Positions 553 through 63,686 of a DNA stretch of 64,000 nucleotides are shown here, in pieces. The position numbers and the translations under genes are program-made. Each line of letters starts with the position of its first letter. The first letter of the stretch is position 1. The DNA is from Chloroflexota bacterium (GTDB lineage: Bacteria; Chloroflexota; UBA11872), in assembly GCA_022821905.1 (NCBI GenBank), contig JAJECS010000030.1, forward strand, positions 8,586 to 72,585, read 5' to 3'. The notes under the pieces were generated by a model. That model did no database searches and was not told the DNA's origin. It saw only the letters and a program-made list of their open reading frames with translations.

Positions 553-579
553 GGATTCCCGCCTCCGCGGGAATGACGG
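553..579. repeat. Copy of the dispersed palindromic repeat GGATTCCCGCC(T/C)CCGCGGGAATGACGG (hairpin ATTCCCGC/GCGGGAAT)
   Basis: The same 26-28 nt motif recurs near 21123, 45267, 54079, 56463 and 63639, always in intergenic DNA. Confidence 0.75.
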
Positions 580-662
580 ACTCAAAGTAGGCCACGCGTC
601 GTGGTCGGGCGGCTTGCAGTGGCACTATGGGCTGCCGCCGCTTGCCGTCGAGGTCACCCCGC

Positions 663-1724
663 ATGTCGGAGCCTGCCAACGCCCCCGCCGCTGAACGCCG
701 CCGCATCCTGACCGGGCTGCGCCCCTCCGGGCCGTCCCACGTGGGCCACTACGCCGGTGCGTTTTCGCAGTGGCTGGAGTTGCAGGACGAGTACGAATCG
801 TTCTTCCTGCTGGCGGATTACCAGGTCTCGGACTACGCCGACAACCTGCCCTGGATTCGCTGGGGGCTGTGGGAGGTGACGCTGGATTGGCTGGGCGTGG
901 GGCTGGACCCGGACCGGTCGCACTTCGTCATCGAAAGCGGCGTGCCGGAGTTTGCCGAGCTGACGCTGCATCTCAGCTGGTTTCTGGGGCTGGGTCACCT
1001 GCAGCGCAATCCGACGCTAAAGGCCGAGTTGGCGGACCTGGAAGCGACCACCAAGTCGGTGCCCGTGGCCTTTTTCAACTATCCCGTCATGCAGATCGCC
1101 AACATCCTGCTGCCGCTGGCGCACCTCGTGCCGGTGGGCGACGACCAGCTGCCGCACATCGAGATGACGCGCGACGTGGCCATCCGCTTCAACCGGCGGT
1201 TCGGAGACGTGTTCGTGGTGCCGGAGGCCCGGATCGGCGCGGTGCCGCGACTCGTCGGGATCGACGGCAAGGGCAAGATGGGCACGTCGGCCGGCAACGC
1301 GATCTTTCTGAAGGATTCCGAGGAGACGCTGCGGGCCAAGGTGCGCAGCATGTTCACCGACCCCAAGCGGCTGCGGGCCACCGATCCGGGCACCGTGGAG
1401 GGGAACCCCGTCTTCATGTATCACGACGCTTTTAACCCAAACACGGACGAGGTGGACGACCTCAAGGCCCGCTATCGGACCGGACGGGTGGGTGACGTGG
1501 AGGTCAAGGACCGGCTCTTCACCGCCATGAACGACTTCCTGGCGCCGATTCGCGACCGGCGGGAGCACTGGGCGGCGCGTCCCGACGACGTGCGCGACGT
1601 GCTGGCGGCCGGCACGGCCGCGACCAAGCGACGCGGCGAGGAGCTGGTGGAGCACGTCCGCACGGCGCTAAGCCTCGATTACCTGCGCGACGGGCCTCCG
1701 CCTCCGCCGGAGGGCGCGCCATAG
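663..1724 (+). CDS. trpS: Tryptophanyl-tRNA synthetase
   Basis: Class I aaRS motifs: HVGHY (HIGH-like) and KMGTSAGN (KMSKS-like); length about 353 aa; the ATG at 663 is preferred over the ORF-track start at 627. Confidence 0.85.
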   Translation: MSEPANAPAAERRRILTGLRPSGPSHVGHYAGAFSQWLELQDEYESFFLLADYQVSDYADNLPWIRWGLWEVTLDWLGVGLDPDRSHFVIESGVPEFAELTLHLSWFLGLGHLQRNPTLKAELADLEATTKSVPVAFFNYPVMQIANILLPLAHLVPVGDDQLPHIEMTRDVAIRFNRRFGDVFVVPEARIGAVPRLVGIDGKGKMGTSAGNAIFLKDSEETLRAKVRSMFTDPKRLRATDPGTVEGNPVFMYHDAFNPNTDEVDDLKARYRTGRVGDVEVKDRLFTAMNDFLAPIRDRREHWAARPDDVRDVLAAGTAATKRRGEELVEHVRTALSLDYLRDGPPPPPEGAP

Positions 1725-1805
1725 GGCCTGTCCGGCCGCCGCAGTGCGCCCGGCGCGGACGCGAACCGGTGGCAGCGACTGACGGCATCACCGGGCGGAA
1801 CGTGG

Positions 1806-2249
1806 ATGTCTGACAAGCGGAAGTCCCGGTCCCGCATCCGCCCGGTGGCGCTGGCGGTGATTCGCGACGGGTCGCGCCTGCTCGTGCGGCGGTACACCGC
1901 GCCCAACGGCGATCGCTACTACCGACCGCTGGGCGGCGCGATTGAGTTCGGCGAACGAGCGGCGCAAGCCGTGAAGCGGGAGATCCTGGAGGAAATCGAG
2001 GCGGAGATCGAGCAGGTGCGACACCTGACCACCGTCGAGAACATCTTCGAGCGGGAGGGCGAGCGCGCGCACCAGATCGAATTTCTCTTCGAGGCACGGT
2101 TCGTGGATCGGTCGCTCTACGGCGCCGAGCTAATCGACGGGACGGAGTCAAGCGGCAAGCGCATCGAGGCCGTTTGGCTCGACCTTTCCGAACCGCTCGA
2201 CGGCCCGTTGTATCCGGAGGGTCTGCGGGAAATGCTGACGACGGAATAA
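1806..2249 (+). CDS. NUDIX hydrolase
   Basis: NUDIX box GGAIEFGERAAQAVKREILEEIEAEI (GX5EX7REUXEEXGU pattern). Confidence 0.75.
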   Translation: MSDKRKSRSRIRPVALAVIRDGSRLLVRRYTAPNGDRYYRPLGGAIEFGERAAQAVKREILEEIEAEIEQVRHLTTVENIFEREGERAHQIEFLFEARFVDRSLYGAELIDGTESSGKRIEAVWLDLSEPLDGPLYPEGLREMLTTE

Positions 2250-2490
2250 CGCCGCCGTAGGAGTTGGCGAAGGTTCGCGAAGTTCACCGATCAATGCGGC
2301 GCTCGAATCGTCCGCCGACGGCATTCGGTTTGGCGAATTCAGGTAATCGAGCGGCAGATCATCGGGTACCCTCTTAGGCGCCTTTCGCGTGCCGCGGCCG
2401 AGGCGGCGTGCCTCGTTTGCCGCGTGACGGGCGCACCCGGGGAAGACTGACGAAATCCCTTCCCCGGCCTCCACTATCAAGGAGCAGCGA

Positions 2491-5055
2491 TTGATGGCGC
2501 ACAGCAACGGCAGCCAAGGCGTCACCGCCCGCGCGAGCGCGGTGCAGACGGTGGCGATCGACGACACGGTTGAGGTCCCGGCCTACGACCGCGAGCGGAT
2601 CGAGGACGTCGGGTTCATGACCGCGATGACGCTGGTGCTCCTGGGCAACTACGCCCAGACCGGGCACTTCGGCGGCCCGCTCGCCTATACGCCGTACAAC
2701 GTGGCGCTGCATCTGGGCGGACCCGAGAATGGCGCCCTCCGCTACGACTACCGCCGGCCCAAGCACCCCTTCTGCGACCGCTTCATGCTGGCCGGGGGGC
2801 ACAACATCCCGACGGCCTACGCCCTGTGGATGATCATGGGTGAGGCCATGGCGCAGAAGCACGCCGCGACGGGCGACGACCGCTATGCCGTCGACCCCAA
2901 CACCGGCATGCTGCCGATCGATGCGCTTGGATTCCGTCGGGGTCGCGGCGCGCTGGACACGCTGCTGCAGGACCACGGGCTCGAGGACCACCCGCTCTTC
3001 GCGCAGGCCAAGATCCGCGGTATCCGCTCGCTCGCCGGTCACTCCGAGACCACCGACGTGACCAACGACGTGAACGGCGGACCGTCGGGGATCGGCGTCG
3101 CCACGGCGGCGGGCAAGGCGGCCTTCTGGGACTTCGTCGGCGCCGACGACTCGCTCAAGGTGATCGCGCTCGAAGGCGAGTTCGCCATGACCGAGGGCCA
3201 CGCGCAGGAGCTGAAGACGCAGGCGCTGGCGCAGCAGGTGGGCAAGCGGCTGCGCGTGCTGCTCTCCTACAACAACGCCGGCATCGACGATTCGCTCGTC
3301 GGCGGCGTCATCGATCCATCGCTCACCCAGGGCTACGTGATCGAAGACCAGTGGACGTCCTACGGCTGGAACGTGATTTCGCTGGAGGACGGCAACGACT
3401 ACGACCAAGTCATGGCCGCGCTGCGGGCGATGGAAGAGTGGGACCCGAATGACCGCCGCCCGATCATCGTCGTCGGGACGACGACCAAGGGCTGGTGGCC
3501 GGCCGCCGACAACGGACACCTTCCCGGGTTCGGCGAGCAGCTCATCGGGTATCACAGCCATCCCTACGAGCTGAAGATGAACGAGCCGTATTTCGTGGCA
3601 CTGGCCGAGACGTTCGAGCGGCGCTACGGCGTGGAGTTCGACGGCATCCGCGACGGCCCGGTGGCCGACGAGCGCGAGCGGCTGATCCAGTTCAAGACCA
3701 ACATCGACGTGGCGATGTCCGTGCTGAACCAGAACGGCTTGGGCGACTGGCTGGCTGATCGGCTGGTCGAGATCGGCGACTCGCTGAACGACGAGCTGCC
3801 ACTGCGCATCGACGCGTCGGTCAATCCGTTTCTCGACGAGCGGCTGTGTCCCGAGAACATTCCGCTGGAGCCGCAGTCGGTCGAGGTCACCAACGAACTC
3901 ACCGGCGAGACGGCGACGGTGGACATCGACCTGGCCAAGAAGCCGGGCGAGGTTGCCGGAACCCGGCGCGCCATCTCCGAGCTGATCAAGTGGGTCAACT
4001 ACGTCACGGACAACCGGTTCATCACCCTGGCGGCGGACCTGTCCAGCTCGATCAACGTGGAGAAGGGCGCGATTTGGGGGCACTACGACCCGGTCGACAA
4101 CCCGCTGGGCACGCGCATGAAGGCCCCGATCGAGGAGGCCGGCAACGCTTCATCGGCCATCGGGCTGGTGAGCCAATCGGCGTCGCTCGATCCCGAGCGG
4201 CACGCGGGCGTCTGGGCCCTGAGCGGCACCTACGGCGCGTTCACGCCGCTGATGTATCTGCCGGCCCGCGTCTGGAGTCAGCAGAACCAGGACAGCCCGT
4301 TCCGGATGGGCGTGCTGCACATTCTGGCGGGGCACTCCGGACCCGAGACCGCCGCGGACGCGCGCACGCACTTCGGCATCTTCGCGCCGCAGGTGTGGAA
4401 GCTGTTCCCGCGTGACCAGGCCATCAACCTGAGTTTCTGGGACTACAACGACGTGGCGCCCGGATATTTCGCGGCGGCATCGTTGGCGGCGCGTGATCCC
4501 AAGGTTGGGCTCATCACCATCGAAGTGGCACGGCCCGACTTTCCGGTGGCGGACCGCAGCGCGTTCGCCGACTCCGATCCGCTGGCGGCGGCCAAGGGGA
4601 TGTATCTGATCCGCGATTGGGACGCGGGCAGCGAGCCGCAGGGCACGGTGTTCGTGCAAGGCTCGAACTCGACGGTCAACCTGATGCGCGTGCTGCCCCA
4701 GCTGGAAGCCGAGGGCGTGAACGTGCGGGTGATCGCCGTGGTGAGCGAGGAGCTTTTCGAGCGCCAGTCGCAGGACTACCGCGACAGCCTGATCCCGGCC
4801 GGATCCCGCTATGACGCGATGGTGGTATCCACGGGCACGCGGCGGATGCCGCCGGTGCGCGACCTCGGGCCGCTGACTGACGAATACTCCCTGTGGTCGG
4901 ATTGGGACAACCAGTGGCTCACGGGCGGGACCGAGCCGGACGTGATCGCCGAGGCGAATCTCGACGCCGAATCGATCCACGCCGGCATCAAGCGGTTCGC
5001 GGAGGCCCGATCCGAGCGGCTCGCACGGCAGCGCGAGGTGCTGGCGGCGCTGTAG
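2491..5055 (+). CDS. Transketolase-family thiamine-diphosphate-dependent enzyme, unusually long (854 aa)
   Basis: The N-terminal region resembles the transketolase TPP-binding domain (GHFGGPLAYTPY..., DRFMLAGGHNIPTAYALW, GGPSGIGVATAAGKA, IALEGEFAMTEGHAQE); specificity is unknown. Confidence 0.55.
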   Translation: MMAHSNGSQGVTARASAVQTVAIDDTVEVPAYDRERIEDVGFMTAMTLVLLGNYAQTGHFGGPLAYTPYNVALHLGGPENGALRYDYRRPKHPFCDRFMLAGGHNIPTAYALWMIMGEAMAQKHAATGDDRYAVDPNTGMLPIDALGFRRGRGALDTLLQDHGLEDHPLFAQAKIRGIRSLAGHSETTDVTNDVNGGPSGIGVATAAGKAAFWDFVGADDSLKVIALEGEFAMTEGHAQELKTQALAQQVGKRLRVLLSYNNAGIDDSLVGGVIDPSLTQGYVIEDQWTSYGWNVISLEDGNDYDQVMAALRAMEEWDPNDRRPIIVVGTTTKGWWPAADNGHLPGFGEQLIGYHSHPYELKMNEPYFVALAETFERRYGVEFDGIRDGPVADERERLIQFKTNIDVAMSVLNQNGLGDWLADRLVEIGDSLNDELPLRIDASVNPFLDERLCPENIPLEPQSVEVTNELTGETATVDIDLAKKPGEVAGTRRAISELIKWVNYVTDNRFITLAADLSSSINVEKGAIWGHYDPVDNPLGTRMKAPIEEAGNASSAIGLVSQSASLDPERHAGVWALSGTYGAFTPLMYLPARVWSQQNQDSPFRMGVLHILAGHSGPETAADARTHFGIFAPQVWKLFPRDQAINLSFWDYNDVAPGYFAAASLAARDPKVGLITIEVARPDFPVADRSAFADSDPLAAAKGMYLIRDWDAGSEPQGTVFVQGSNSTVNLMRVLPQLEAEGVNVRVIAVVSEELFERQSQDYRDSLIPAGSRYDAMVVSTGTRRMPPVRDLGPLTDEYSLWSDWDNQWLTGGTEPDVIAEANLDAESIHAGIKRFAEARSERLARQREVLAAL

Positions 5056-18792: not shown

Positions 18793-18868
18793 GGCGAGAT
18801 AGCTCAGTCGGTAGAGCAGTGGACTGAAAATCCATGTGTCGCCAGTTCGATTCTGGCTCTCGCCACCA
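18793..18868 (+). tRNA. tRNA-Phe (anticodon GAA), canonical copy with an encoded CCA
   Basis: GGCGAGATAGCTCAGTCGGTAGAGCAGTGGACTGAAAATCCATGTGTCGCCAGTTCGATTCTGGCTCTCGCCACCA closely matches bacterial tRNA-Phe. Confidence 0.9.
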
Positions 18869-19216
18869 AGCCGTCTCCGTCGGGGGAAGCTCGCCCCGGA
18901 TTAGCCCGCCGATTCTCCGGCGCCTGATTGCCAGGCCGGCTGACCGATTTCAAGCGCGCAACTCCGCAGGGTATGGTCAGGGCAGCGCGACAAGCATCAG
19001 CGATCCATAGTCGGACTCCGGCGCGGCCTCCGTGAACGCGATGCTGCCTGCGGGGCGTTGCCATCCGGCGCCAGCGCCGTCCTCACGTCGTACCAGTTGC
19101 TGCCCGAAGCCCCACGAGACCCTGGGGTAAACTTGGCGGGTACGGGGGCAAACCGCTAACCCATAGTCACCTCCCGCAAGCATCTGCCCCTCCTGGCAGC
19201 AACCCTCCTGTCCCTG

Positions 19217-20698
19217 GTGGTCATCGCCGCCCTGTACGTCCGCACACTCGACAACTACTTCCAATCCGACGACTTCGACTGGCTGTATACGTATGGCGCG
19301 CGTGCAGCGGCGGCAGGGACGGTGCAGGCGGTGCTGGCCCCGCCCGACCCGGCCTTGGTCGATCCGGCGGATCCCTTCACGTGGAATTACCGGCCCACTA
19401 CTGCCTTGCTCGTCAACGGGCTGTTCCGCCTGTTCGGGGTTGGTGCGCCGGCTGGGTATCACGCGATTCTGATTGCGGGACGCCTGGTGGCGTCGGCGCT
19501 GGCAGGCATGCTGGCGGGCCGCCTCACAGGCCGTGCCTGGATCGGCGCGGCTGTGGTGGCGGTGTTCGGGCTCCACTTCGCGCATGTCGAGACGGTGGCG
19601 TGGTTCGGCTCGATCGCTGAAGTCGTCGCCGGCGTGCTGGGGCTCGCGGCGGTGCTTGCGTTTCTGCACTACCGAGAATCAGGCCGTGCGCGCTGGGCGT
19701 GGACCGCAATTGTGATGTACGGCTTAGCGCTGGGCGCCAACCCCACGGCAGCGCCGATTATCGGAGTCTTTGTGCTGCTGGACCTTTGGCGGTCCGCTCG
19801 CGGAGCCGGACGCCGCTGGAATGCGCATTGGGTCTACTTGCCACTACTAGCGCTAGCGGGCGCGTACCTCGCCATAGAGGCGGCCGCTCTGAGTGTGGCG
19901 GCCGGGAGCGGCGGCTATGGGTATAGCCTCGGTTCGCATGTGCTGCTGAATGCGCTCTGGTACCCCGCAGTTCTTGTTGCCCCCTTCACTGAGCCAGAAC
20001 TGTTCGATGTGCACCGCGCACTGCTTGCCGCAGTCGATGGAAGCGGGTCACTCGCCGACCTCGCGGTGACAGCGAGATTTGCGCCGGTGCTTGTCGCACA
20101 CGTCGCAGTCATCGGCGCGGCTGGCTGGATTGCGGTTCGCGGTCCGGGATGGGCCCGCGTGGCTGTTGCCGCCGCGCTCTGCCTCGAAGCGCCCTTTGTC
20201 CTGCTCGGTGGAACGATGTTCCACTTTGCCTATCTGCCGGCAGCCTTTGTTCTGACCTTAGGCGTCGCCGCCCTGATGGTCAGTTCCCACGCGATGGCCA
20301 GGATGCTGCCGTGGTCCCGGGCGGTTGGTGCGGCGCCGGTGCTTGTTGCTGCAGGTCTCCTGGCCTGGCAGACGCATGGCCGCCTCGACGACTGGGAGTT
20401 TGCCGCCGGCCTCAGCCATCGACTGGTCCAGAGCGCTCACGCGGAGCTGGGCGACATACCCACGGGATCGACCGTAATTGCCGGGGGCCTGCCCAACACG
20501 GTCAACGGCGCCTATGTGTTTCGCGAAGGATTTCCGGCAGCGCTCAAAGTGACATACGGCCGCTCTGACTTTGAGGTTCAGACGTTTAGCCCGCCGGTCG
20601 TCATGCGCTTGATGTCGGAGTCGGACGCTAGCGACAGGCGTTATTTCCTGACCTATGAACCGTCAGCCATGGCCCTTCAGCGTGCAACCCACCGCTAG
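19217..20698 (+). CDS. Polytopic integral membrane protein, possibly a GT-C fold (ArnT/PMT/GT39-87-like) glycosyltransferase
   Basis: 493 aa with 10-12 predicted transmembrane helices and loop motifs such as HFAHVETVAWFG; GTG start; lies between two tRNA-Phe copies. Confidence 0.45.
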   Translation: MVIAALYVRTLDNYFQSDDFDWLYTYGARAAAAGTVQAVLAPPDPALVDPADPFTWNYRPTTALLVNGLFRLFGVGAPAGYHAILIAGRLVASALAGMLAGRLTGRAWIGAAVVAVFGLHFAHVETVAWFGSIAEVVAGVLGLAAVLAFLHYRESGRARWAWTAIVMYGLALGANPTAAPIIGVFVLLDLWRSARGAGRRWNAHWVYLPLLALAGAYLAIEAAALSVAAGSGGYGYSLGSHVLLNALWYPAVLVAPFTEPELFDVHRALLAAVDGSGSLADLAVTARFAPVLVAHVAVIGAAGWIAVRGPGWARVAVAAALCLEAPFVLLGGTMFHFAYLPAAFVLTLGVAALMVSSHAMARMLPWSRAVGAAPVLVAAGLLAWQTHGRLDDWEFAAGLSHRLVQSAHAELGDIPTGSTVIAGGLPNTVNGAYVFREGFPAALKVTYGRSDFEVQTFSPPVVMRLMSESDASDRRYFLTYEPSAMALQRATHR

Positions 20699-20883: not shown

Positions 20884-20956
20884 GGCGAGATTGCTCAGTC
20901 GGTCGAGCAGTGGACTGAAAATCCATGTGTCGCCAGTTCGATTCTGGCTCTCGCCA
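20884..20956 (+). tRNA. Second tRNA-Phe (GAA) copy with 2 substitutions (T9, C21) and no encoded CCA
   Basis: Identical to the 18793 copy except A9>T and A21>C; the 7 nt upstream (GCGCATG) are also shared; it may be a functional variant or a decaying duplicate. Confidence 0.7.
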
Positions 20957-21122
20957 CCTGGAACAACGCGTTTGCCCATCGCGCCCGGGGCGTGTGGGGA
21001 AGGGCCGCGCCACGTGGACGCATCGAAAGCCTGGATTCCGGCCGTCGGAGACCCCTGCAGAATCCAGCCGGGCTTGGGGATGACCGGGCGATTCCTGTCC
21101 GCCCCTAGGTTCAGTGAAGGGT

Positions 21123-21148
21123 GGATTCCCGCCTTCGCGGGAATGACG
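21123..21148. repeat. Copy of the GGATTCCCGCCTTCGCGGGAATGACG dispersed repeat
   Basis: Exact motif; intergenic, between the second tRNA-Phe and the cyclophilin gene. Confidence 0.75.
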
Positions 21149-28324: not shown

Positions 28325-28585
28325 GATGGCGGCCGACTCCGATGCTCTGGGAGCTTCTGGCTTGGTGGCGATTTCGGGTGAAGGAATCCGGGGCGCCGGA
28401 ACCTCACGAGTTTGGAGGCAATCGCCGCCGCCGTCAGTGCCGATTCCCGCCGAGAATCCGAAAAATCAGGGTTATAATGAAGTGCGGAAAAAGAGCGGTC
28501 GCCTTCCGCGCGCCAACCACCTTCTCGATCCGAGCGCGGTCGTCGCGGCAATGTTGCCAAACACGAAACACCCAGCGAGGGCGCC

Positions 28586-45205: not shown

Positions 45206-45266
45206 CTCGGTCGTCCCATCGACGGGCAAGGCGAAGCTGGCGTAGGGGTCGAAATCGAAAAGGCTG

Positions 45267-45290
45267 GGATTCCCACGCTCGCGGGAATGG
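45267..45290. repeat. Variant copy of the dispersed GGATTCCC...GCGGGAATG repeat
   Basis: GGGATTCCCACGCTCGCGGGAATGG in the NYN-RCC1 intergenic region. Confidence 0.6.
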
Positions 45291-45370
45291 AGCGGGCTCA
45301 GACGAGACTACGAGTGACCGGTCCGACGCTGCCTGCAACCCGGGCCAGCAGGCAACCCTAGATTGTTGTC

Positions 45371-45393: not shown

Positions 45394-45591
45394 GGTTGAT
45401 CCCGACGGGCGCCTCCGCGCGGACATACCGGCGCGAATCTGGTGTGACCTGAGTGGGGTATAGGAACGGCGGAGCCCACGCTGCACGCAGCGCGGGCCGC
45501 CGAGCACGAGAAAATTGCAAGATCTTGGGAACGATTGGCCCGCGGGCCGCGTACTGTCTCCAAAGGGACCGCTGCGTCTGGAGCCCGTTGC

Positions 45592-48500
45592 ATGCCTGGG
45601 CGACCATTGACCGACGAGCCACGTCGCCGGCGGCTGCAAGCCATTCGCGTGGTCACGGCTGCGTTGGCCCTGGCGCTGATCATCGCCGCGCCGCCAGCCG
45701 CCGAGGCCGAGGACCCGCCCGCGACGACCGGGCCGCGGTTCGTCGCCGTCGGCAGCGGGGAGTACCACTCGTGTGCGCTGCGAGCCGACGGCGAAGCCGT
45801 GTGCTGGGGCGCTCAACCCGTTGATCCCGACGCCGAACTCGATCCGGTTGACTTCGGCCAGGCCTCGCCACCAACCGGCGAACGGTTCACGGCCATCAGC
45901 AGCGGCGGCTGGCACACCTGCGGCCTGCGTGAAGACGGTTCCGCCGTGTGCTGGGGCCGCGATGAACACGGGCAGGCCTCACCGCCGATAGACGAGCGGT
46001 TCTCGGCCATCAGCAGCGGCGGCCGTCACACGTGTGCCCTGCGCGAAGACGGAACCGCGGTGTGCTGGGGGAACAATCAGGAAGGCCAGGCTTCGCCGCC
46101 TGAGGGCGAACGCCTAGCCACGGTCAGCAGCGGCGGCTACCACACCTGCGGGTTGCGCGAGGACGGACAGGCCGTGTGTTGGGGGCCGGAGCCTGGGTCG
46201 GACGGCCACACCGGATGGTCGGCGCCGCCCGACGAGCCGCTGGTCGCACTGTCCAGCACCTGGGGCAGGTCATGCGGCCTGACGGCTGATGGCGGGGCGG
46301 TCTGCTGGGGCGCATGGTCGGACGTGGTCTATGAAGGCACGTCGCCGCCCAGCGATCAGTTTGTCACCTTGACCGTGGACGCTGAGGGCGGCTGCGGTCT
46401 CTGGACCAATCGCACGGCGGTGTGCTGGGGCTTCGGCTACTTCTATCCCACGCCCGAACGTGTGCGCTTTGCGGCGATCAGTCGCGCCAACAACCACATT
46501 TGCGCGATCCGAGAGGCTGACGGCGGGTTGGTGTGCTGGGGCGACAACGACTATGGGCAAGCGACGCCTCCAGACGGCGAGCGATTCGTCAAGGCCGAGC
46601 CCCGCGTCAAGCCGCCCAAGCCCGTGGTGCCCTTTGTTGCCGTCAGCAGTGGCTCGAACCATGCGTGCGGCCTCACCGGCAGTGGCAGCGTCTGGTGCTG
46701 GGGCGACGATGAGTACGGAAAGGCGTCACCGCCCGAAGGCGAGACATTCGCGGCCATCGCCAGTGGATCGGATCACACCTGCGGGATCCGCCTGGACGGC
46801 ACACTGGTCTGTTGGGGAAGAGATCACCGGGCCCAGGCATCGCCGCCGGAAGGTGGCGGATTCGCCGCCGTCACCAGCGGGCTGAGCCACTCCTGCGCAT
46901 TGCGCGAGGACGGCACGGCCGTCTGCTGGGGCGGCTTCGTTGACGATGAGAGCCTGGAAACGCTGAGCGAGCAGCAACTCAGCGCCATCAGCAGCGGGGC
47001 GTTTGGGTTCTGCGCGCTGCGAACCGACGGCAGCCTGATTTGCTCCCAATCCGTCGGCGCGCCGCCGGAGGGCGAGACGTTTGCGGCAATCAGCGTGGGG
47101 TGGGACCACGCCTGCGGGCTGCGCGAGGACGGCTCGCCGGTCTGCTGGGGGGAGCGCTTTTCCTGGACGTCGCGCGGCCAGGCCTCGCCGCCGGAGGGTG
47201 AGCGGTTCGTGGCCATCAGCAGCGGGTTCGACCACACCTGCGCCGTGCGGGCGGACGGCACCCCTGTGTGCTGGGGCGGCGAGGATCCCCAATCCGATCG
47301 CGGCCAGGCCTCACCGCCGCCAATCGAACGGCTAGTCGCCGTCAGCAGCGGATCCGGATTCACCTGCGGCCTGCGCAGGGACGGCACGGAGGTCTGCTGG
47401 CGCTTCACACCCTCGGGCGTGGCTATCGACTCCGAAGCCATTCGCGCCCACTACCGATACAGGAGCGCGCGGCCGTCGCTTGTCAGCGGCGGCGACTGGC
47501 ACTCCTGCGGCGTCCTGGAGGCGGGCGGCTTCGCGTGCGTCCATACCAATCCTGGGAGCGACATACCGCTAGGCATCAGCAGCCGCGGATTCGAGGAGGT
47601 CAGCAACCGTGTCTTCACGTCGATGAGCACCGGCAATCGATTCACCTGCGCGCTCGATCCGGACGGCGCACCGGTGTGCTGGGGCATCGACGACTACGGC
47701 CAGGCGTCGCCGCCCGCCGATGAGCGATTCACCGCCCTCAGCAGTGGGGAACGGCATGTCTGTGCGCTTCGCGGGGACGGCACGCCGGTGTGCTGGGGCG
47801 ACCCGGCGCAAGGCCGCACCACGCCGCCCGCAGGGGAATCGCTCACCACCATCAGCAGTGGCTGGGCCCACACCTGTGCGCTCCGTGCGGACGGCACGCC
47901 CATCTGCTGGGGCCGCGACTACTACGGCCAGGCATCGCCGCCCGACGGTGAGCAGCTCGTCACCATCAGCAGCGGGCACGCGCACACGTGCGGCTTGAGA
48001 GCAGATGGCGCACCGGTCTGCTGGGGACGGAACGACAGCGAGCAGGCATCACCGCCTGCGGGTGCGCAGTTCGTATCGATCAGCAGTGGCCCGGCCCACA
48101 CCTGCGCCCTTCACGCCGACGGCAGCCCGTTCTGTTGGGGCGATGAAGATAGCGAGGTTCTGAGAGCGCCGAGCGTCGACCAGTACAGCTCGGTTTACAG
48201 TGGCGAGGTGCACGCCTGCGGACTGCGGGCGGACGGGACTCTTGTCTGCTGGGGCGACAGCTACTCGGCCGCCCCGAAGGGCGAGGCACTCGCGACGGTG
48301 AGCCTCGGGCTGGCGCACAGCTGCGGCCTACGCCAGGACGGCCGCCCTGTCTGTTGGGGCGATGGCTACGAGACGCCGGTTGTCTCGGCCCGCCAGTCGA
48401 TCTACCAGATCATCAGTGCGCAGAGTGTCCGCGCCATCGCCAGCGGCTATGACCATGCGTGTGTGCTGCGCCAGGACGGCACCCCGGTGTGCTGGTCGCT

Positions 48501-51500
48501 CAGGGGCGCCTATGGCAACCGGCACGGCGAATTGTCGCCGCCCTACGGCGAGCGCTTCGCCTCGATCCGCAGTGGCAACGAGCACACCTGCGGATTGCGT
48601 GAGGACGGCGTGGCGATTTGCTGGGGCGCCAGCGAGCAACCACCGGAGGGCGAACGCTTCTCGGTCATCAACCCTGGCGCGTATCACACCTGCGGATTGC
48701 GTGAGGACGGCACCGCGGTCTGCTGGGGATTCAATGAGCAGGGCCAAGCCGATCCGCCGTCAGACGAGCGATTCACGGACATCAGCAGCGGCTACACCCA
48801 CACCTGCGCCTTGCGGGCGGACGGTGAGGCCGTGTGCTGGGGCGCCGAGGATCCCGCGAGAGACCGCGGTCAGGCCTCGCCGCCGCCCGGCGAGGAATTC
48901 GCAGCCATTAGCAGCGGGCAGGACCATACCTGCGCGCTGCGTCGAGACGGAACGACCGTCTGTTGGGGCGATATTGGGGCGGGGCGCGTCTCGCCGCCCC
49001 ACAGCGAGCGCTTCACGGCGCTCAGCAGCGGGACCGCTCACACTTGCGCCCTGCGCGAGGACGGCACAGCCGTGTGCTGGGGCTACAACCAAAGCGACTT
49101 CGGCGCCGCCCGCGACTTCGGCGGCCAAGCATCGCCCCCACACGGCGTAGAGTTCTCCCAGATCAGCAGTGGTGACGAGTTCACCTGCGCCCTGCGCAAG
49201 GACGGAACGGGCGTCTGCTGGGGATTCTGGCTCGTGCCGGAAGCGCCACGCTACGCGCCGATTGACGTCGGTCCGTTCGCGGCCGTCAGCGGCGGCGCGC
49301 AGCACACCTGCGCCTTGCGCCGCGACGGTACCGCCTTCTGCTGGGGCGACAACACCCAGGGTCAGGCCACGCCGCCTGCCGGTGAGCGGTTCGCGGCCAT
49401 CAGCAGCGGAACCAATCACACCTGCGCGCTCCGCACGGACGGCACGGCCGTCTGTTGGGGATCCGATGAAGGCGGTCGGGCTTCGCCCCCTGCGGACGAG
49501 ACGTTCACGACGATCAGCAGCGGAGCGGGGCACACATGCGCCTTGCGGCAGGACGGCTCGGCGGTTTGCTGGGGACAGGACTTCGCGCGCCAGTCGTCGC
49601 CACCCGCCGAAGATCGATTCACCGCCATCAGCAGCGGCCGCGCACATACGTGCGCCCTGCGCGAGGATGGCAGCGCCGTCTGCTGGGGTCAGATTGACTT
49701 CTATGACCTCAGGGCGCCGGAGGACGAACGCTTCGTCGCCATCACGGCCGGTCCGGACTACGTCTGCGCCCTGCGGGCGGATGGCACGGTCTGGTGTCGG
49801 GGTGGCGACAAATATTGGCTGCCCCGGTCGATCCCCGAGCATGAGCGACTCGTAACCATCAGTGGCGGCCACGCCCACGCCTGCGGGCTCCGCGAGGACG
49901 GCTCCGTTGCCTGTTGGAGCGAGCAGGACATTGACGGCCGAACGTTCCCACCGCGTCGCGAGCGCTTCGTATCCGTCAGCAGCGGCGGTCGGCACACCTG
50001 CGGCTTGCGCGAGGACGGCGACATCCTCTGCTGGGGCGAGGACATTCACGGTCAGTCGTCGCTCGAGGGTCCGCCGCGAACCTCGCTGTTCGGCGAGCGG
50101 TTCACGGACATCGCCGCCAGCACCTATCCCTGCGCCCTCCGGCAAGATGGGACGGCATTCTGCTGGCCGGCTCCCAAGGCTCCCTTTTCCTATTCCGCCG
50201 CGGAGCCAACGATGCCGCCGAACGAGCGACTCGCGTCCATAAGCGCCGGCTACGATCACCACTGCGGGCTGCGCGACGACGGTGCCCCCGTCTGCTGGAG
50301 CGACGAAGACGCGTGGGAGCCGAACCTCTGGGGCCAAGCCACGCCGCCGGAGGGCGAGCGCTTCGTGACGCTGAGCAGCGGCGGCGGTCACACCTGCGCG
50401 TTGCGGGAGGACGGAAGCGCCGTCTGCTGGGGCCGAAACACGGATGCTTACCTTAATGAGCCGGTCGGCCAGGCAACGCCGCCCGCCGATGAGCGATTCG
50501 TGGCGATCAGCAGCGGCGGAACGCACACATGCGCCCTGCGAGCGGACGGGACCGCCGTCTGCTGGGGCGACAATCGCGATAGCTACGGCAATTGGATTGG
50601 TCAGGCGATCCCTCCCGAAGGCGAGCGCTTCACAGCGATTGCCAGCGGCGGCGACCGCACGTGCGCCATTCGCCTGGACGGAACCGTCGCCTGCTGGGGC
50701 TATAACCCCTACGGCCGACATGCGCCGCCCGAGAACGAGACGTTTGCCTCGATCTCCAGCGGAAGCAACCACGCCTGCGGCATTCGCACCGACGGCACGG
50801 CCGTCTGTTGGGGCACGACGGGCGAACACGCCTCGGTGCCAGCGGGAGAGACGTTTGCGTCAATCAGCGCAGGCCGGTACCTCACCTGCGGCCTACGCGA
50901 CGACGGCACCGCCCTGTGCTGGGGCGGTGGATATCCGGTCGCGAGACCGGCTACGCCGCCCTATGTTCCGCCGCCGCCGACCATCCCCCCGCCACCGAGA
51001 CCTCTCCCTCCGCTCACCGCCATCAGCAGCGGCTTTCGACACACCTGCGCCCTTAGCGACGAGGGTCTCGCCATCTGCTGGGGCGAGAACAATTACGGAC
51101 AGGCGACTCCGCCGGAAGGCGTGCGATTCAAAGCCATCAGCAGCGGTCGCCAGAGCACCTGCGGGATTCGAGTGGACGGCATTCCCATCTGCTGGGCGTA
51201 TCAAGACCGCATGGAAGCCCAGACGCTATCGAATGGAACATTCGAGTCGATCAGCACGGGCTGGGGTCACGTGTGCGCCCTGCGCGACGACGGCACCGCC
51301 GCCTGCTGGGGAGCCGACGGCTATGGTCAGATCCGAGTGCCCGACGGCGAGCGCTTCATCGCCATCGGCTGCGGGGACTTTCACACCTGCGGGCTGCGCC
51401 ACGATGGCTCGGTGGCGTGCTGGGGGCGCAATGACCTGGCTGTGACCACGCCGCCGGAGGGCGAGCGGTTCGTCGCCATCAGCGTCGCCGGCTATCACGC

Positions 51501-51807
51501 CTGCGGCTTGCGCCAGGACGGAACGCGGGTGTGCTGGGGCAGCGAGTTCCAGGGCCAGAGCTATCCGCCAGCTGGCAAGCGGTTCACGGCGATCAGCGGC
51601 GGCGGCTCCCACACCTGCGGCCTCGACGAGAACGGCGCGGCCGTCTGCTGGGGGCTCAACGAAAACGACCAGGCCACGCCGCCACCGGGCGAACGGTTCA
51701 GCATCATCAGCAGCGGCGGCTCCCACACCTGCGCCATTCGCCCGGACGGCACTGCCGTCTGTTGGGGGCTGGACGATGATGGCCAAGCTTCGCCGCCACG
51801 GCCATAG
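45592..51807 (+). CDS. Giant secreted protein (2071-2090 aa) made of about 50 tandem RCC1-like (regulator of chromosome condensation / beta-propeller blade) repeats
   Basis: An N-terminal signal (PRRRRLQAIRVVTAALALALIIAAPPAAEA) followed by the recurring unit ...F(T/V)AISSG..HTC(A/G)LR.DGTAVCWG....GQA(S/T)PP.GERF... about 50 times, with a Pro-rich linker (PPYVPPPPTIPPPPRPLPP) near residue 1810. Confidence 0.85.
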   Translation: MPGRPLTDEPRRRRLQAIRVVTAALALALIIAAPPAAEAEDPPATTGPRFVAVGSGEYHSCALRADGEAVCWGAQPVDPDAELDPVDFGQASPPTGERFTAISSGGWHTCGLREDGSAVCWGRDEHGQASPPIDERFSAISSGGRHTCALREDGTAVCWGNNQEGQASPPEGERLATVSSGGYHTCGLREDGQAVCWGPEPGSDGHTGWSAPPDEPLVALSSTWGRSCGLTADGGAVCWGAWSDVVYEGTSPPSDQFVTLTVDAEGGCGLWTNRTAVCWGFGYFYPTPERVRFAAISRANNHICAIREADGGLVCWGDNDYGQATPPDGERFVKAEPRVKPPKPVVPFVAVSSGSNHACGLTGSGSVWCWGDDEYGKASPPEGETFAAIASGSDHTCGIRLDGTLVCWGRDHRAQASPPEGGGFAAVTSGLSHSCALREDGTAVCWGGFVDDESLETLSEQQLSAISSGAFGFCALRTDGSLICSQSVGAPPEGETFAAISVGWDHACGLREDGSPVCWGERFSWTSRGQASPPEGERFVAISSGFDHTCAVRADGTPVCWGGEDPQSDRGQASPPPIERLVAVSSGSGFTCGLRRDGTEVCWRFTPSGVAIDSEAIRAHYRYRSARPSLVSGGDWHSCGVLEAGGFACVHTNPGSDIPLGISSRGFEEVSNRVFTSMSTGNRFTCALDPDGAPVCWGIDDYGQASPPADERFTALSSGERHVCALRGDGTPVCWGDPAQGRTTPPAGESLTTISSGWAHTCALRADGTPICWGRDYYGQASPPDGEQLVTISSGHAHTCGLRADGAPVCWGRNDSEQASPPAGAQFVSISSGPAHTCALHADGSPFCWGDEDSEVLRAPSVDQYSSVYSGEVHACGLRADGTLVCWGDSYSAAPKGEALATVSLGLAHSCGLRQDGRPVCWGDGYETPVVSARQSIYQIISAQSVRAIASGYDHACVLRQDGTPVCWSLRGAYGNRHGELSPPYGERFASIRSGNEHTCGLREDGVAICWGASEQPPEGERFSVINPGAYHTCGLREDGTAVCWGFNEQGQADPPSDERFTDISSGYTHTCALRADGEAVCWGAEDPARDRGQASPPPGEEFAAISSGQDHTCALRRDGTTVCWGDIGAGRVSPPHSERFTALSSGTAHTCALREDGTAVCWGYNQSDFGAARDFGGQASPPHGVEFSQISSGDEFTCALRKDGTGVCWGFWLVPEAPRYAPIDVGPFAAVSGGAQHTCALRRDGTAFCWGDNTQGQATPPAGERFAAISSGTNHTCALRTDGTAVCWGSDEGGRASPPADETFTTISSGAGHTCALRQDGSAVCWGQDFARQSSPPAEDRFTAISSGRAHTCALREDGSAVCWGQIDFYDLRAPEDERFVAITAGPDYVCALRADGTVWCRGGDKYWLPRSIPEHERLVTISGGHAHACGLREDGSVACWSEQDIDGRTFPPRRERFVSVSSGGRHTCGLREDGDILCWGEDIHGQSSLEGPPRTSLFGERFTDIAASTYPCALRQDGTAFCWPAPKAPFSYSAAEPTMPPNERLASISAGYDHHCGLRDDGAPVCWSDEDAWEPNLWGQATPPEGERFVTLSSGGGHTCALREDGSAVCWGRNTDAYLNEPVGQATPPADERFVAISSGGTHTCALRADGTAVCWGDNRDSYGNWIGQAIPPEGERFTAIASGGDRTCAIRLDGTVACWGYNPYGRHAPPENETFASISSGSNHACGIRTDGTAVCWGTTGEHASVPAGETFASISAGRYLTCGLRDDGTALCWGGGYPVARPATPPYVPPPPTIPPPPRPLPPLTAISSGFRHTCALSDEGLAICWGENNYGQATPPEGVRFKAISSGRQSTCGIRVDGIPICWAYQDRMEAQTLSNGTFESISTGWGHVCALRDDGTAACWGADGYGQIRVPDGERFIAIGCGDFHTCGLRHDGSVACWGRNDLAVTTPPEGERFVAISVAGYHACGLRQDGTRVCWGSEFQGQSYPPAGKRFTAISGGGSHTCGLDENGAAVCWGLNENDQATPPPGERFSIISSGGSHTCAIRPDGTAVCWGLDDDGQASPPRP

Positions 51808-53978: not shown

Positions 53979-54078
53979 CCGAGAGTTGTCACGCCCGGAC
54001 GCGGGGGCTCTGGGCCCACACGGACAAGTCAGGGACGGCCGGGGAAAGCCGTGTGCGGCCGCAAGTTGGATGACGGGT

Positions 54079-54143
54079 GGATTCCCGCCTTCGCGGGAAT
54101 GACGGAAGGGGGCGGGAATGACGGATGCGGCAGGAATGACGGA
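54079..54143. repeat. Dispersed-repeat copy extended by three tandem GGGAATGACGGA-like units
   Basis: GGATTCCCGCCTTCGCGGGAATGACGGAAGGGGGCGGGAATGACGGATGCGGCAGGAATGACGGAGG. Confidence 0.7.
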
Positions 54144-54162: not shown

Positions 54163-56391
54163 TTACGGCGGCAGGGTCTGGAGGAAGTTGACCAGGTTCC
54201 AGATGTCGAACACGGTCAGCGTCTCGCCGAATGCCGGCATGGCCGTGTCGGCGATGCCCTGTTCGATGAAGCCGTAGAGCTCGCCGTCGGGGTGCAGCGG
54301 CACGTGAATGGTCAGGTCCAGCGGCGGCGGATCGAGTCCAGCCGCCAGCGGGCCGTCGCCCTGTCCGCCCGGACCATGGCAGCTGACGCAGTGCGCCTCG
54401 AAGTGCATGCGTCCGGCATCGACGGATTTCTGGTCGGGCGGAACGGGGTTCACGGCGCTCAAGGAGCTTGGAGCGAACTCGGGGGTGGTGACCAGCAGCG
54501 CCAGCCCAGCCGCGGCAGCGCCGAAGCCGACGACCGTCACGCCCCGCCGCGCCCAGTCCGCCCAGGCCACCGGCTGCAACATGCCGAAGGCGAGGAGGAG
54601 ACCCAGGCCGGCGAGCGCAATGGCCCACACGCGGCGCACATCGTCGGCGGCCGGGGGCGGTGCGCCGCCCGCCGCTGAGCCGCCCGGCGTCACGTCGAAC
54701 CGGAAGGGCGCGCGCGCGTCGAACTCGCCCGGGCGCCGCACGATTGCGAGCGCCTGCCAGCGACCGACGAGGCCGATGAAGTCGCCCGCCACGACGTAGC
54801 GTCCGTCAGCGTCCCCTTCCAGACGCAGATCTCGCTGCCCGATGTCCGAGTCGAGGAACTTGAACTGCAGCTCGACGTCGGCGTCCTTCACGGGCTGCCC
54901 ACGGTCCTGAAGCGTCAGGGTGGCGGTGTTGTTGCCGGGCGTGCCGGGCTGAATGCTCAACTCCAAGTCGAGATCGTCGATTCGGGTCGCCAGGTTTATG
55001 CCTCGCGCATCGCCCAACGCGACCTGGCGCGCAGGTTCGAGACTGGTCAGCAGGCCGACCGCCGCAACGACGGCGACGCCAAACAGCACCTCGGCGGCCA
55101 CCAGGCGCGGCGCCCACCGGCCGGCAGCCGTGGGCAGCACATCGTGCAGGCGACGCCGCGTCCAGAGCAGGTTGACGCCGCCCAGGCCAAGGAGCGGCGC
55201 CACGAGCGCGAGCTTGGCCACCAGCACCCGTCCGTAGTCGGTTTGCACCAAGCGCGGCAGCTCGACGACTTGAATCCAGGTGGCAAACGCGCCGGTGATG
55301 ACAAGCGCGCCGACCGAGATCGTGGCAATGGTCGAAAATCGCGCCAGCAGCGCCCCCAGCAGGCGGCGGCGCAAGGCGCCGTCGAGCGTCCGGCGGGCAT
55401 GCAGGAGCGACAGCAGCAGCGGGGCGAGGCCACCGGCCCAAAGAGCGGCCGTGAGCAAATGCAGCACGTCGGCGCTGGTGGCCGCCGTCGTGGACTCGAG
55501 CAGCGCCGCGGCGTGGCTGCCCAATGAAATCGTGACGAGCACAGCCGCGGCCAATGCCACGACCGGCAACCAGGCTCGAAGCAGCCGCGGCTCGCGGCCG
55601 GCGCGCATCAGGGCCAGGGCCAACCCGCCGACCACGATGGCCCGCACGACCCACAGCGTGCCCCACTGCCCCAAGCCGAGCGCGCTGCCGACAGCACCCA
55701 CCAGATCCGCCTCGGCATCGCCCGCCAGGCCCGCGGCCTGGGTCACCAGCAGTCCCACATGGGCGCCGGCGGCCAGACCGAAGCCGATCCATCCGAGCTC
55801 CAGGTAGCGCGATCCCGCAGTGCCGACGCCGACCGCGCGGGCGGCGGGCGCGAAGATCAGAGGCACGTGCACCGCGGTGCCCAGCACGAGCATGGCGCCA
55901 ACGAGCAGCGCGGCTCGCAGCACGGGCTCGGCGGGGCTGAGCACGAGCGCGGACGCCGGAGTGCTCGCCACGTCAGCGTCGATGGGCTCGCCTACGCTGA
56001 AGGCGTACGAGCCGCGGATCACGTGACCATCAACAACCGACAAGGTGCGCCAGGTCACGACGTAGGTGCCGTCGGCGAGCGGCGGCACGCGGACCAACAT
56101 GGCGGAACGGTTCGACGGGTCGACCTGGCTGGGGCCGTCGGTCACCGACGACCCGGAGGCATCCAGGACATCGATGCGGCTGAATTCAGGTTCGATTCGC
56201 TCGGAGAACTCGGCGGCGACGATTTGTGGCGGCTTGTCAACCGTCGAGCCCGCGGCGGGTATTGCCCGCACGAGGTTGGCATGGGCGGCGACCGGCATGA
56301 GCCCGAGGCATGCGAGCAACGCGGCAAGCGCGGTGGCCAATGCCCAGCGGCGGGCCGGCGCGTGGGTCAGACGGCGGAGCGACCGTTGCAT
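54163..56391 (-). CDS. CopC-CopD fusion copper-resistance/transport protein with a C-terminal mono-haem cytochrome c domain
   Basis: A signal peptide, then a CopC-like domain (HANLVRAIPAAGSTV...GTYVVTWRTLSVVDGH), an 8-10 TM CopD-like region and a C-terminal CVSCHG (CxxCH) haem motif. Confidence 0.75.
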   Translation of the reverse strand: MQRSLRRLTHAPARRWALATALAALLACLGLMPVAAHANLVRAIPAAGSTVDKPPQIVAAEFSERIEPEFSRIDVLDASGSSVTDGPSQVDPSNRSAMLVRVPPLADGTYVVTWRTLSVVDGHVIRGSYAFSVGEPIDADVASTPASALVLSPAEPVLRAALLVGAMLVLGTAVHVPLIFAPAARAVGVGTAGSRYLELGWIGFGLAAGAHVGLLVTQAAGLAGDAEADLVGAVGSALGLGQWGTLWVVRAIVVGGLALALMRAGREPRLLRAWLPVVALAAAVLVTISLGSHAAALLESTTAATSADVLHLLTAALWAGGLAPLLLSLLHARRTLDGALRRRLLGALLARFSTIATISVGALVITGAFATWIQVVELPRLVQTDYGRVLVAKLALVAPLLGLGGVNLLWTRRRLHDVLPTAAGRWAPRLVAAEVLFGVAVVAAVGLLTSLEPARQVALGDARGINLATRIDDLDLELSIQPGTPGNNTATLTLQDRGQPVKDADVELQFKFLDSDIGQRDLRLEGDADGRYVVAGDFIGLVGRWQALAIVRRPGEFDARAPFRFDVTPGGSAAGGAPPPAADDVRRVWAIALAGLGLLLAFGMLQPVAWADWARRGVTVVGFGAAAAGLALLVTTPEFAPSSLSAVNPVPPDQKSVDAGRMHFEAHCVSCHGPGGQGDGPLAAGLDPPPLDLTIHVPLHPDGELYGFIEQGIADTAMPAFGETLTVFDIWNLVNFLQTLPP

Positions 56392-56401
56392 GACCCTGCC
56401 C

Positions 56402-56422
56402 GGGCAGGTTTGAAACCTGCCC
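56402..56422. terminator. GC-rich hairpin GGGCAGGT-TTGAA-ACCTGCCC between the cupredoxin-like gene and the copCD start; repeat family 2; possible terminator or attenuator
   Basis: Same architecture and loop as the 36076 element; ends about 10 nt upstream of the copCD ATG. Confidence 0.35.
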
Positions 56423-56462
56423 CTACGCCTGATTTCCGCCGCGCTTCCAAGATTGACCGGAC

Positions 56463-56489
56463 TGGATTCCCGCCTTCGCGAGAATGACG
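56463..56489. repeat. Copy of the GGATTCCCGCCTTCGCG(A/G)GAATGACGG dispersed repeat
   Basis: Intergenic, immediately downstream of the cupredoxin-like gene. Confidence 0.75.
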
Positions 56490-56493
56490 GAAC

Positions 56494-58294: not shown

Positions 58295-58377
58295 GCGTTC
58301 AACCGGAATCTCGGGAAGCACCAGTCAGCAGCAGGGGATGGGCAGCGCGCGACGCTAGCACCGGCTGAATCTAGGGG

Positions 58378-60614: not shown

Positions 60615-60701
60615 GGGGCACATGTCAGGGATCGATGTCGAAGAACATGGTGGGAATCGAGCCGCAATCGCCGGGTCCCGGTCGATGCTCAACACGGGCA
60701 G

Positions 60702-62952: not shown

Positions 62953-62991
62953 TGGTAGCCTATCGTCCGCCGATCAGACCGCATCCGGTGA

Positions 62992-63228
62992 GTGCCGATG
63001 AATCTCCGCAAGCTGTTCCGGAGAGACCCGGCCCCCGGCGAGTTGCCGATCCGCCACACCATCAAGGTGATGCCAAGGGAAACGCTGCGGACGATCGCCG
63101 AGCGCGAATACGGCGACCAACATCAGTGGGAGATTATCTTCGAACGCAATAGGTGGCGATTCGACGGCGAGGATCCTCAGGCGGTTTATCCCGGAATGGA
63201 TCTCGACATCCCGGAACCCGCGACTTAA
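62992..63228 (+). CDS. Small LysM-domain protein
   Basis: HTIKVMPRETLRTIAEREYGD...IYPGMDLDIP follows the LysM consensus. Confidence 0.55.
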   Translation: MPMNLRKLFRRDPAPGELPIRHTIKVMPRETLRTIAEREYGDQHQWEIIFERNRWRFDGEDPQAVYPGMDLDIPEPAT

Positions 63229-63244
63229 GGCAACGCCGGCTTTC

Positions 63245-63331
63245 GGTGCCGAAGGTCGGGATCGAACCGACACGAGGAGTTACCTCACTGGTTTTTGAGA
63301 CCAGCGCGTCTACCAATTCCGCCACTTCGGC
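63245..63331 (-). tRNA. tRNA-Leu (anticodon CAA) with a long variable arm
   Basis: Reverse complement GCCGAAGTGGCGGAATTGGTAGACGCGCTGGTCTCAAAACCAGTGAGGTAACTCCTCGTGTCGGTTCGATCCCGACCTTCGGCACC. Confidence 0.85.
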
Positions 63332-63335
63332 GCGT

Positions 63336-63411
63336 GGCAGGAGTGGAGGGACTCGAACCCCCGACCTACGGTTTTGGAGACCGTTGCTCTAGCCAACTGA
63401 GCTACACTCCT
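63336..63411 (-). tRNA. tRNA-Trp (anticodon CCA)
   Basis: Reverse complement AGGAGTGTAGCTCAGTTGGCTAGAGCAACGGTCTCCAAAACCGTAGGTCGGGGGTTCGAGTCCCTCCACTCCTGCC; 4 nt from tRNA-Leu. Confidence 0.85.
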
Positions 63412-63638
63412 CTGCCCGGTTCACGGTAGCACAGGATTCGCGCGCCGCGGTCGCCGTCTTGAGCCCGGCGCGAGCCTGACGCTCGACCGACAACGCTTGC
63501 CTGAATACGTGCCATCGGCATCACCAAACGGGGCGATCTTTCCGTCATTCTGGTTACTGGGTCCATAGCCTAATTTAAACTTCCTATTAAACCCAATCGC
63601 GTAAGTAATCCAGTGAACCTTTGGGTCGATCCCGGCCT

Positions 63639-63686
63639 GGATTCCCGCTCCCCGCCTTCGCGGGGACAGGCTTCGCGGGAATGACG
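63639..63686. repeat. Expanded copy of the dispersed repeat with a nested inner hairpin (GGATTCCCGC-TCCCCGCCTTCGCGGGGACAGGCTTC-GCGGGAATGACG)
   Basis: Outer arms identical to the other copies; the inner CCCCGC-CTTC-GCGGGG is a second hairpin. Confidence 0.7.

Follow-up and report, generated by a model that had tools for sequence, protein, structure and literature searches.

A family of hairpin repeats, probably of Neisseria Transformation Sequence type, with nested and half-site variants, in an uncultured Chloroflexota bacterium

The stretch of DNA analysed here (the window) comprises 64,000 nt of contig JAJECS010000030.1 (assembly GCA_022821905.1, positions 8,586 to 72,585) from a Chloroflexota bacterium of the lineage UBA11872. 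It is metagenome-derived, and a 100% identical sequence (L121) reaches 2.4 kb past its end. About 40 of the window proteins were recognised with Pfam as products of ordinary metabolic genes. The closest named homologs of the CopC-CopD-cytochrome c protein come from Chloroflexi/Chloroflexota metagenome-assembled genomes (MAGs), those of the Dehalococcoidia being more distant. Between the genes lie six copies of a short hairpin of 26-28 nt (stem ATTCCCGC/GCGGGAAT, loop GAAG) with the flanks CGTC on its 5' and C on its 3' side. Judged by its sequence, this repeat is of a known kind and belongs to the Neisseria Transformation Sequence (NTS) and Ssn-related motif (SRM) family, which is associated with the GIY-YIG nuclease Ssn.

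The copies were collected by a pattern match allowing up to three mismatches over the 64-kb window. The motif GGATTCCCGC-N4-GCGGGAATGACG, which reads CGTCATTCCCGCGAAGGCGGGAATCC on the minus strand, was present on the plus strand without mismatch at 21123-21148 and 54079-54104 and with one mismatch at 553-578 and 56464-56489. An expanded copy at 63639-63686 consisted of GGATTCCCGC, 22 nt and CTTCGCGGGAATGACG, and a looser stem pattern added a variant at 45269-45288. This gave a total of six copies (553, 21123, 45267 decayed, 54079, 56464 and 63639 loop-expanded), all on the same strand, while 100 shuffled windows yielded no match and the chance expectation was 0. An earlier, sequence-only reading of the window had described a dispersed, hairpin-forming repeat family lying entirely between genes, and on both points it was right: all six copies were intergenic according to GC3-based gene calls and Pfam. 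Its positions 553, 21123, 45267 (as a variant), 54079 and 63639 were retained, 56463 was off by one (56464), and a degenerate copy at 28443 was dropped. The latter folded no better than shuffled sequence (-3.1 kcal/mol, z -1.0) and had no GTC flank, and it is therefore not supported as a copy. The coordinates of the copies and their variants are given in Table 1. Copy 2 lies 77 nt downstream of the stop of a cyclophilin gene on the same strand and 165 nt from a tRNA-Phe gene, and copy 6 is likewise near a tRNA gene. Copy 5 starts 4 nt past the stop codon of a gene for a 338-aa protein and 73 nt upstream of the CopCD start. Two independent Logan contigs from the same sample (L123 and L122) begin or end exactly at NTS copies, at window positions 553 and 54081. 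Such ends are expected if a high-copy repeat breaks the assembly graph, and they are indirect evidence for many copies in the genome.

Table 1. Repeat copies and associated variants in the window
Feature	Coordinates	Strand	Description
NTS copy 1	551..578	-	CGTCATTCCCGCGGAGGCGGGAATCCAC on minus strand; 104 nt past Pyr_redox_dim stop, 85 nt before TrpRS start
NTS copy 2	21121..21148	-	1 mismatch to NTS consensus; SRM regex match
NTS copy 3, decayed	45265..45292	-	stem mutated (GTGGGAAT arm); GTC cleavage determinant lost (TCC)
NTS copy 4	54077..54104	-	1 mismatch to consensus; SRM regex match; between convergent SDR and CopC-CopD-cytochrome c genes
Two extra tandem 5' half-sites	54105..54143	-	TCCGTCATTCC(C)GCC + spacer, period 18-19; cleavage side of copy 4
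NTS copy 5	56462..56489	-	one stem mismatch (C to T); SRM regex match
Nested NTS copy 6	63637..63686	-	48 nt + CT flank; outer stem ATTCCCGC/GCGGGAAT, inner stem TCCCCGC/GCGGGGA
22-nt insert TCCCCGCCTTCGCGGGGACAGG (plus-strand reading)	63649..63670	.	between 5' arm and loop of copy 6

The NTS has been defined as CGTCATTCCCGCGMAVGCGGGAATCYRG (Chenal et al. 2025, Nat Commun, PMC11893778), and the previously described dRS3 repeat, ATTCCC-N8-GGGAAT, falls within this definition. In the same study the nuclease SsnA, a 94-aa single-domain GIY-YIG protein (cd10448), bound the NTS only as single-stranded DNA (ssDNA) and cut it a few nt 5' of the hairpin; the reverse strand, double-stranded DNA and RNA were not cut. 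The three bases 5' of the palindrome (GTC) govern cleavage and the C after the palindrome governs binding, the loop can be dispensed with or extended, and split halves of the site are still cut. NTS-like SRM border ssn genes across many phyla (PMC11893778).

The window repeats contain the dRS3 core. Three copies (21121, 54077 and 56462) had one mismatch to the NTS consensus and the copy at 551 had two. The published SRM regex, HGTCWYN(0-2)YYVSBRHN(0-5)WNVSBRGN(0-2)RNCYNB (PMC11893778), matched at the same three positions, with a mean of 0.86 matches in simulated windows. Both the GTC 5' of the stem and the C 3' of it were kept in five of the six copies, copy 3 being the one without GTC. When folded as ssDNA, the perfect copies reached -8.9 kcal/mol (z -2.5 to -3.1 against shuffles) and the nested copy 6 reached -16.5 kcal/mol (z -3.3). 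Folding was weaker in copies 3 and 5, and with z -0.9 the 45267 variant did no better than shuffles; it is counted here, on its sequence match alone, as a putative decayed copy.

The exact motif was found in at least 120 matches from many phyla when one genome per species was scanned, and metagenome and viral collections likewise gave at least 120 matches each, the latter in at least 120 contigs of IMG/VR. The consensus of 164 copies from 120 genomes was CTGGATTCCCGC-yTkC-GCGGGAATGACG, the same as the NTS. Isolates with the motif included Povalibacter, Azospirillum, Massilia, Duganella, Devosia, Sphingomonas and Neisseria lactamica; MAGs with it included Dehalococcoidia (among them closed chromosomes), Bacteroidota, Planctomycetota, Nitrospirota, Gemmatimonadota and others. 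Copies in other genomes also formed inverted pairs, spaced 20-110 bp. Because it extends across many phyla, the motif does not mark this lineage, as the sequence-only reading had supposed it might.

In several of these genomes the repeats accompany the nuclease gene. NTS-ssn-NTS units were found in a Sphingorhabdus MAG (L056), in L198 and L153, and in two Chloroflexota MAGs. Within the Chloroflexota, an Anaerolineae sequence (L252) and one from a Chloroflexi bacterium (L376) carry ssn inside hairpin clusters with the stem and flanks of the window repeats, and L376 also has GAAG/CTTC loops, half-sites and GGAATGACGGA tails as in the window. In L252 (GCA_020433805.1, positions 2600-3700) a ~80-nt unit is directly repeated, five times upstream and five times downstream of ssn. 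Each unit holds two hairpins, one of the NTS type with a loop of 9 nt (CGTCATTCCCGC-N9-GCGGGAATCC) and another reading GGGTGCCCGATAAA..TTCGGGCAC. The Ssn proteins of Anaerolineae, Endozoicomonas, Nitrosomonas and Riflebacteria are 72-80% identical, and this accounts for a target that does not differ from phylum to phylum. Nearly all of the ~8000 scored Ssn candidates had E <= 1e-5, and most lay on contigs of ~1 kb. This identity, together with the short contigs, appears to indicate a very recent and massive horizontal spread of the repeat-flanked gene.

Four syntenic relatives were available for comparison: L124 (94% nucleotide identity), L251 (95% amino acid identity of CopCD), L249 (90% amino acid identity; GCA_026706485.1) and L250 (85% amino acid identity; a closed 3.38-Mb contig). 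The hairpin cores were 94% identical among the relatives, against 41-46% for the flanks at locus 6 and 72% for the non-coding flank at locus 5. From this difference between core and flank, the copies appear to be old and vertically inherited, and to be either constrained or homogenised. An ortholog of copy 5 was present in all five genomes compared; in L249 its loop was expanded in another way, by 24 nt, and changes in the stem were partly compensated, and in L250 the GTC had become GTA. Copy 6 was nested in the window only and canonical in L124, L251 and L249. At copy 4, L250 had a plain hairpin, L251 one degenerate half-site and the hairpin, the window two half-sites and the hairpin, and L124 three half-sites and a nested hairpin, while L249 had no copy and an unrelated 55-bp spacer.

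Two further differences between the relatives involve repeats of this kind. The CN_hydrolase and TPP-enzyme genes, with 15 bp between them in the window, are separated in L251 by a ~340-bp insertion (19156-19508). Within this insertion are an SRM-like hairpin of another sequence (GTCATTTCGAGC..GCGAGAAATC) and oppositely oriented tandem GGAATGACA half-sites, so the lineage seems to carry more than one SRM variant. In L249 (8078-8431) an extra ~240 bp with a half-site and a full NTS lies between the CdAMP_rec gene and a gene for a 115-aa protein. This segment is missing in the window, L124 and L251 and partial in L250, and could reflect either an insertion or a deletion.

The 22-nt insert of the nested copy 6 was found in identical form in copy 4 of L124, with canonical outgroups at both loci. 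An identical insert at different loci with canonical outgroups points to two independent gains in sister lineages. The alignments showed no microhomology at the borders of the insert; for this reason, and because the outgroups are canonical, precise deletion by slippage was rejected as the origin of the canonical/nested polymorphism, and the polarity is that of an insertion. The sequence-only reading had suggested for this copy a self-insertion of the repeat into its own loop. A derived insertion into a canonical loop is indeed what the three canonical relatives indicate, but the 22 nt are not a whole second copy: they consist of a 4-nt linker and a hairpin, TCCCCGC-CTTC-GCGGGGA, that nearly repeats the host hairpin's upper stem and loop but has one C:G pair more. 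The inner hairpin resembles sister SRM variants of the form CGTC[AG]TCCCCGC-N4-GCGGGGA[TC]CC, which co-occur elsewhere. At least 120 metagenome contigs, with GC contents of 38-70%, contained the nested architecture, its consensus being TGGATTCCCGCTCCCCGCyTTCGCGGGGACArGCTTCGCGGGAATGAC, and in L198 a nested copy directly adjoins ssn. The lineage-specific linker CAGG was common to both insertion events and was present elsewhere in 12 of 123 copies. From this linker we infer copying from an intragenomic donor, by conversion or copy-choice, in preference to a de novo origin. The inner and outer loop sequences agreed in 52 of the 123 copies versus 40 expected by chance, which is only a slight excess, and on this count a de novo origin from the repeat's own hairpin is also conceivable.

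Copy 4 shows a second kind of variation. The sequence-only reading had noted three tandem GGGAATGACGGA units after 54079, and these were found at 54095, 54114 and 54133 with a period of 18-19. Distant genomes (L023, L038, L040, L057, L060, L085, L100, L043 and L198) likewise had tandem 5' half-sites, CGTCATTCCCGC with a further 7-11 nt, on the upstream side of a full hairpin. Among 514 full hairpins from 360 loci, 30 had a solo 5' half-site just upstream and 2 the mirror arrangement, a solo 3' half-site downstream. The duplicated unit spans roughly the distance between the published cleavage site and the apex of the hairpin, and we infer that the arrays are connected either with cleavage and its repair or with slippage starting on the cleavage side. 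Since SsnA tolerates both an extended loop and split halves (PMC11893778), the nested copies and half-site arrays should remain Ssn substrates.

The cleavable strand was the minus strand of the window in all six copies (two-sided p ~0.03), and the extra copy in L249 had the same orientation. The GC skew of the window is mostly positive and about two-thirds of the coding bases are on the plus strand, which suggests that plus is the leading strand. If so, the lagging-strand template, which is transiently single-stranded, would carry the non-cleavable strand, and the uniform orientation may reflect avoidance of cutting this template. In 91 single-orientation loci of other genomes the orientation showed no bias relative to local GC skew (51 versus 40, p = 0.29), and the strand bias of the window thus stays a local observation.

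Taken as a whole, the repeats are best explained as NTS/SRM elements whose cognate ssn gene probably lies elsewhere in this genome, and to this explanation we assign a probability of roughly 0.8. The copies would be cut when exposed as ssDNA, whether in incoming transforming or conjugative DNA or in displaced strands, and recombination would be modulated by this cutting in the way described for N. meningitidis. The family would have spread horizontally with the highly conserved ssn as a unit of the form NTS-ssn-NTS resembling an insertion sequence (IS). Several observations weigh against this explanation. No ssn (GIY-YIG) gene was found in searches with tblastn, jackhmmer and hmmsearch over six-frame open reading frames (ORFs), which covered the 64-kb window, the 2.4 kb past its end (L121) and the 20-22-kb syntenic loci of L124, L249, L250 and L251. 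Two family-wide protein searches found no Ssn on a contig of this lineage among the best 120 of ~8000 candidates. The biochemistry of Ssn binding and cleavage is confined to enzymes of Neisseria and Wolbachia, none being from the Chloroflexota, and a role in natural transformation was demonstrated only in N. meningitidis (PMC11893778).

These negative searches also bear on the principal rival, an unlikely one in our estimate, in which the copies are orphan relics: fossils of a past invasion by an ssn element in a genome that no longer encodes Ssn, kept for other reasons or by concerted evolution. The lack of ssn in ~66 kb of this genome and in 4 x 20-22 kb of its relatives fits such a history, as do the decay of copy 3 and the change of GTC to GTA in the copy-5 ortholog of L250, and 19% of SRM-rich genomes have no detectable ssnA (PMC11893778). 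However, a single ssn in a genome of >3 Mb would seldom fall within 66 kb. The cores are far better kept than the surrounding non-coding DNA across relatives of 85-95% identity, and the recent lineage-specific remodelling, with identical 22-nt inserts at two loci and stepwise arrays, argues for an active process.

An element acting at the RNA level, with the hairpin stabilising or terminating transcript 3' ends like some REP sequences, is improbable as the main explanation, and a secondary RNA role is possible at copies 2, 4, 5 and 6. These four lie just downstream of a gene, on the strand that gives a hairpin-bearing transcript, and copy 5, so close behind its stop codon, is kept in all five genomes. 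Copies 1 and 3, by contrast, are antisense to their flanking genes. The terminator role proposed in the sequence-only reading fails in that no copy is followed by a U-tract on either strand and a terminator scan reported none. No Rfam family matched the repeats, the only Rfam matches in the window being tRNAs. The conserved asymmetric flanks (CGTC and C) are Ssn determinants on DNA, and SsnA is inactive on RNA (PMC11893778).

It is very improbable that the hairpins are attachment or target sites for a site-specific recombinase or an IS110-type transposase, as described for dRS3 and the Nf prophages in Neisseria. In favour of such a function, dRS3 has been cited as the target of a phage recombinase (PMC11893778), the NTS occurs in the IMG/VR contigs mentioned above, and copies 2 and 6 are near tRNA genes. 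No integrase, transposase or prophage gene stands beside any copy in the window, however, and the orthologous sites in the four relatives are occupied by the hairpin alone.

Least probable of all is a REP/REPIN system mobilised by a REP-associated tyrosine transposase (RAYT, a Y1 HUH transposase), the kind of partner envisaged in the sequence-only reading. With roughly one copy every 10 kb of a short, GC-rich palindrome outside genes, and with inverted pairs in other genomes, the family has the look of such a system, and the likeness holds insofar as this is an analogous repeat family tied to a dedicated DNA enzyme. It goes no further: the window has no inverted doublets (REPINs or BIMEs), all six copies being solo and on one strand, and the motif lacks a GTAG-type REP head. 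Among the ~40 window proteins there was no transposase, integrase, RAYT or GIY-YIG domain, and specifically no Y1 transposase domain; the gene between inverted NTS pairs elsewhere encodes a GIY-YIG nuclease, and the literature assigns the motif to Ssn (PMC11893778). A miniature inverted-repeat transposable element, also suggested earlier, was rejected, as the solo 26-nt hairpins have no body bounded by inverted repeats and the alignments with the relatives show no target-site duplication. A resemblance to the tRNA T-arm (GATTCCCGCC) was dropped as coincidental.

Within the preferred explanation of NTS/SRM repeats with a cognate Ssn, we tentatively suggest that NTS copies are being actively remodelled in vivo in the Chloroflexota, a possibility that we rate well short of likely. 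The 22-nt inner hairpin would repeatedly enter the junction of loop and arm, the half-site arrays would grow stepwise (0, 1, 2, 3), and both would be scars of Ssn cleavage and repair, or of copy-choice, on the chromosome. Both the repeat family and its enzyme have been in the literature since 2025, so the basic observation has an explanation and is not new. The window adds a clear Chloroflexota instance of NTS/SRM and comparative evidence that single copies are retained, under constraint, over long spans of evolution. It also provides two structural variants that occur naturally, the nested hairpin and the arrays of 5' half-sites; both change between near-identical strains and match the tolerance of SsnA in vitro for extended loops and split sites. 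The words "nested" and "tandem" are absent from the main text of PMC11893778, and a literature search for the nested sequence returned the Ssn paper and otherwise only unrelated papers. As far as this search shows, neither the nested subtype nor the one-sided arrays of half-sites, nor the turnover of both between strains, had been described before. Should Ssn acting on the chromosome have produced these variants, they could help to clarify the function of Ssn and NTS outside Neisseria and the way in which the repeats multiply. If the remodelling is real, it would provide a first line of evidence on the diversification, and perhaps the spread, of the repeats.

Some neighbouring features of the window were recorded as well. 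A conserved hairpin or palindrome, GGGCAGGTTTCAAACCTGCCC, lies on the minus strand at 56395-56430, ~35 nt upstream of the CopC-CopD-cytochrome c start at 56391. Its counterpart in L249 and L250 is GGTGCGGGTTTCAAACCCGCCC, with a compensatory change from A:T to G:C, and it may be the operator of a metal regulator or a leader RNA structure. Two tRNA-Phe(GAA) genes, at 18793-18868 and 20884-20958, are near-identical, agree fully over most of the 13 nt upstream as well, and lie 2.1 kb apart; the ORFs between them (18977-19669 and 19217-20698) had no Pfam match, and it is the second of the two genes that precedes NTS copy 2. Adjoining the decayed copy 3 is a variable locus, 45535-51807, which encodes a 2090-aa protein with ~36 RCC1 repeats. 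This gene is absent in the relatives L248-L251, which have two short unannotated ORFs instead.

Among known systems, REP/REPIN-RAYT and the hairpin ends of IS200/IS605 share with the window repeats a short extragenic hairpin that is recognised as ssDNA by a small dedicated enzyme, with a gene flanked by the repeats, and both architectures are IS-like and domesticated. They differ in that the NTS enzyme is a GIY-YIG nuclease and not an HUH Y1 transposase, that the NTS has no GTAG head, and that transposition of the NTS is only a possibility. With the dRS3 and NIME repeats of Neisseria (Parkhill 2000, Bentley 2007, as cited in PMC11893778 and PMC1797815) the window repeats have an identical 20-bp palindromic core, whereas the window belongs to another phylum and contains isolated copies only, with no RS blocks (and hence no NIME mosaics) and no Nf prophage. 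The closest likeness is to the NTS/SRM-Ssn system, with which they share the sequence, the hairpin, the oriented flanks, the intergenic bias, the dispersed multi-copy state and the occurrence in many phyla, and the same repeats border ssn genes in other Chloroflexota. What sets the present case apart from that system is the uncultured Chloroflexota host, the single strand on which all window copies lie, the 48-nt nested hairpin and the tandem 5' half-site arrays.

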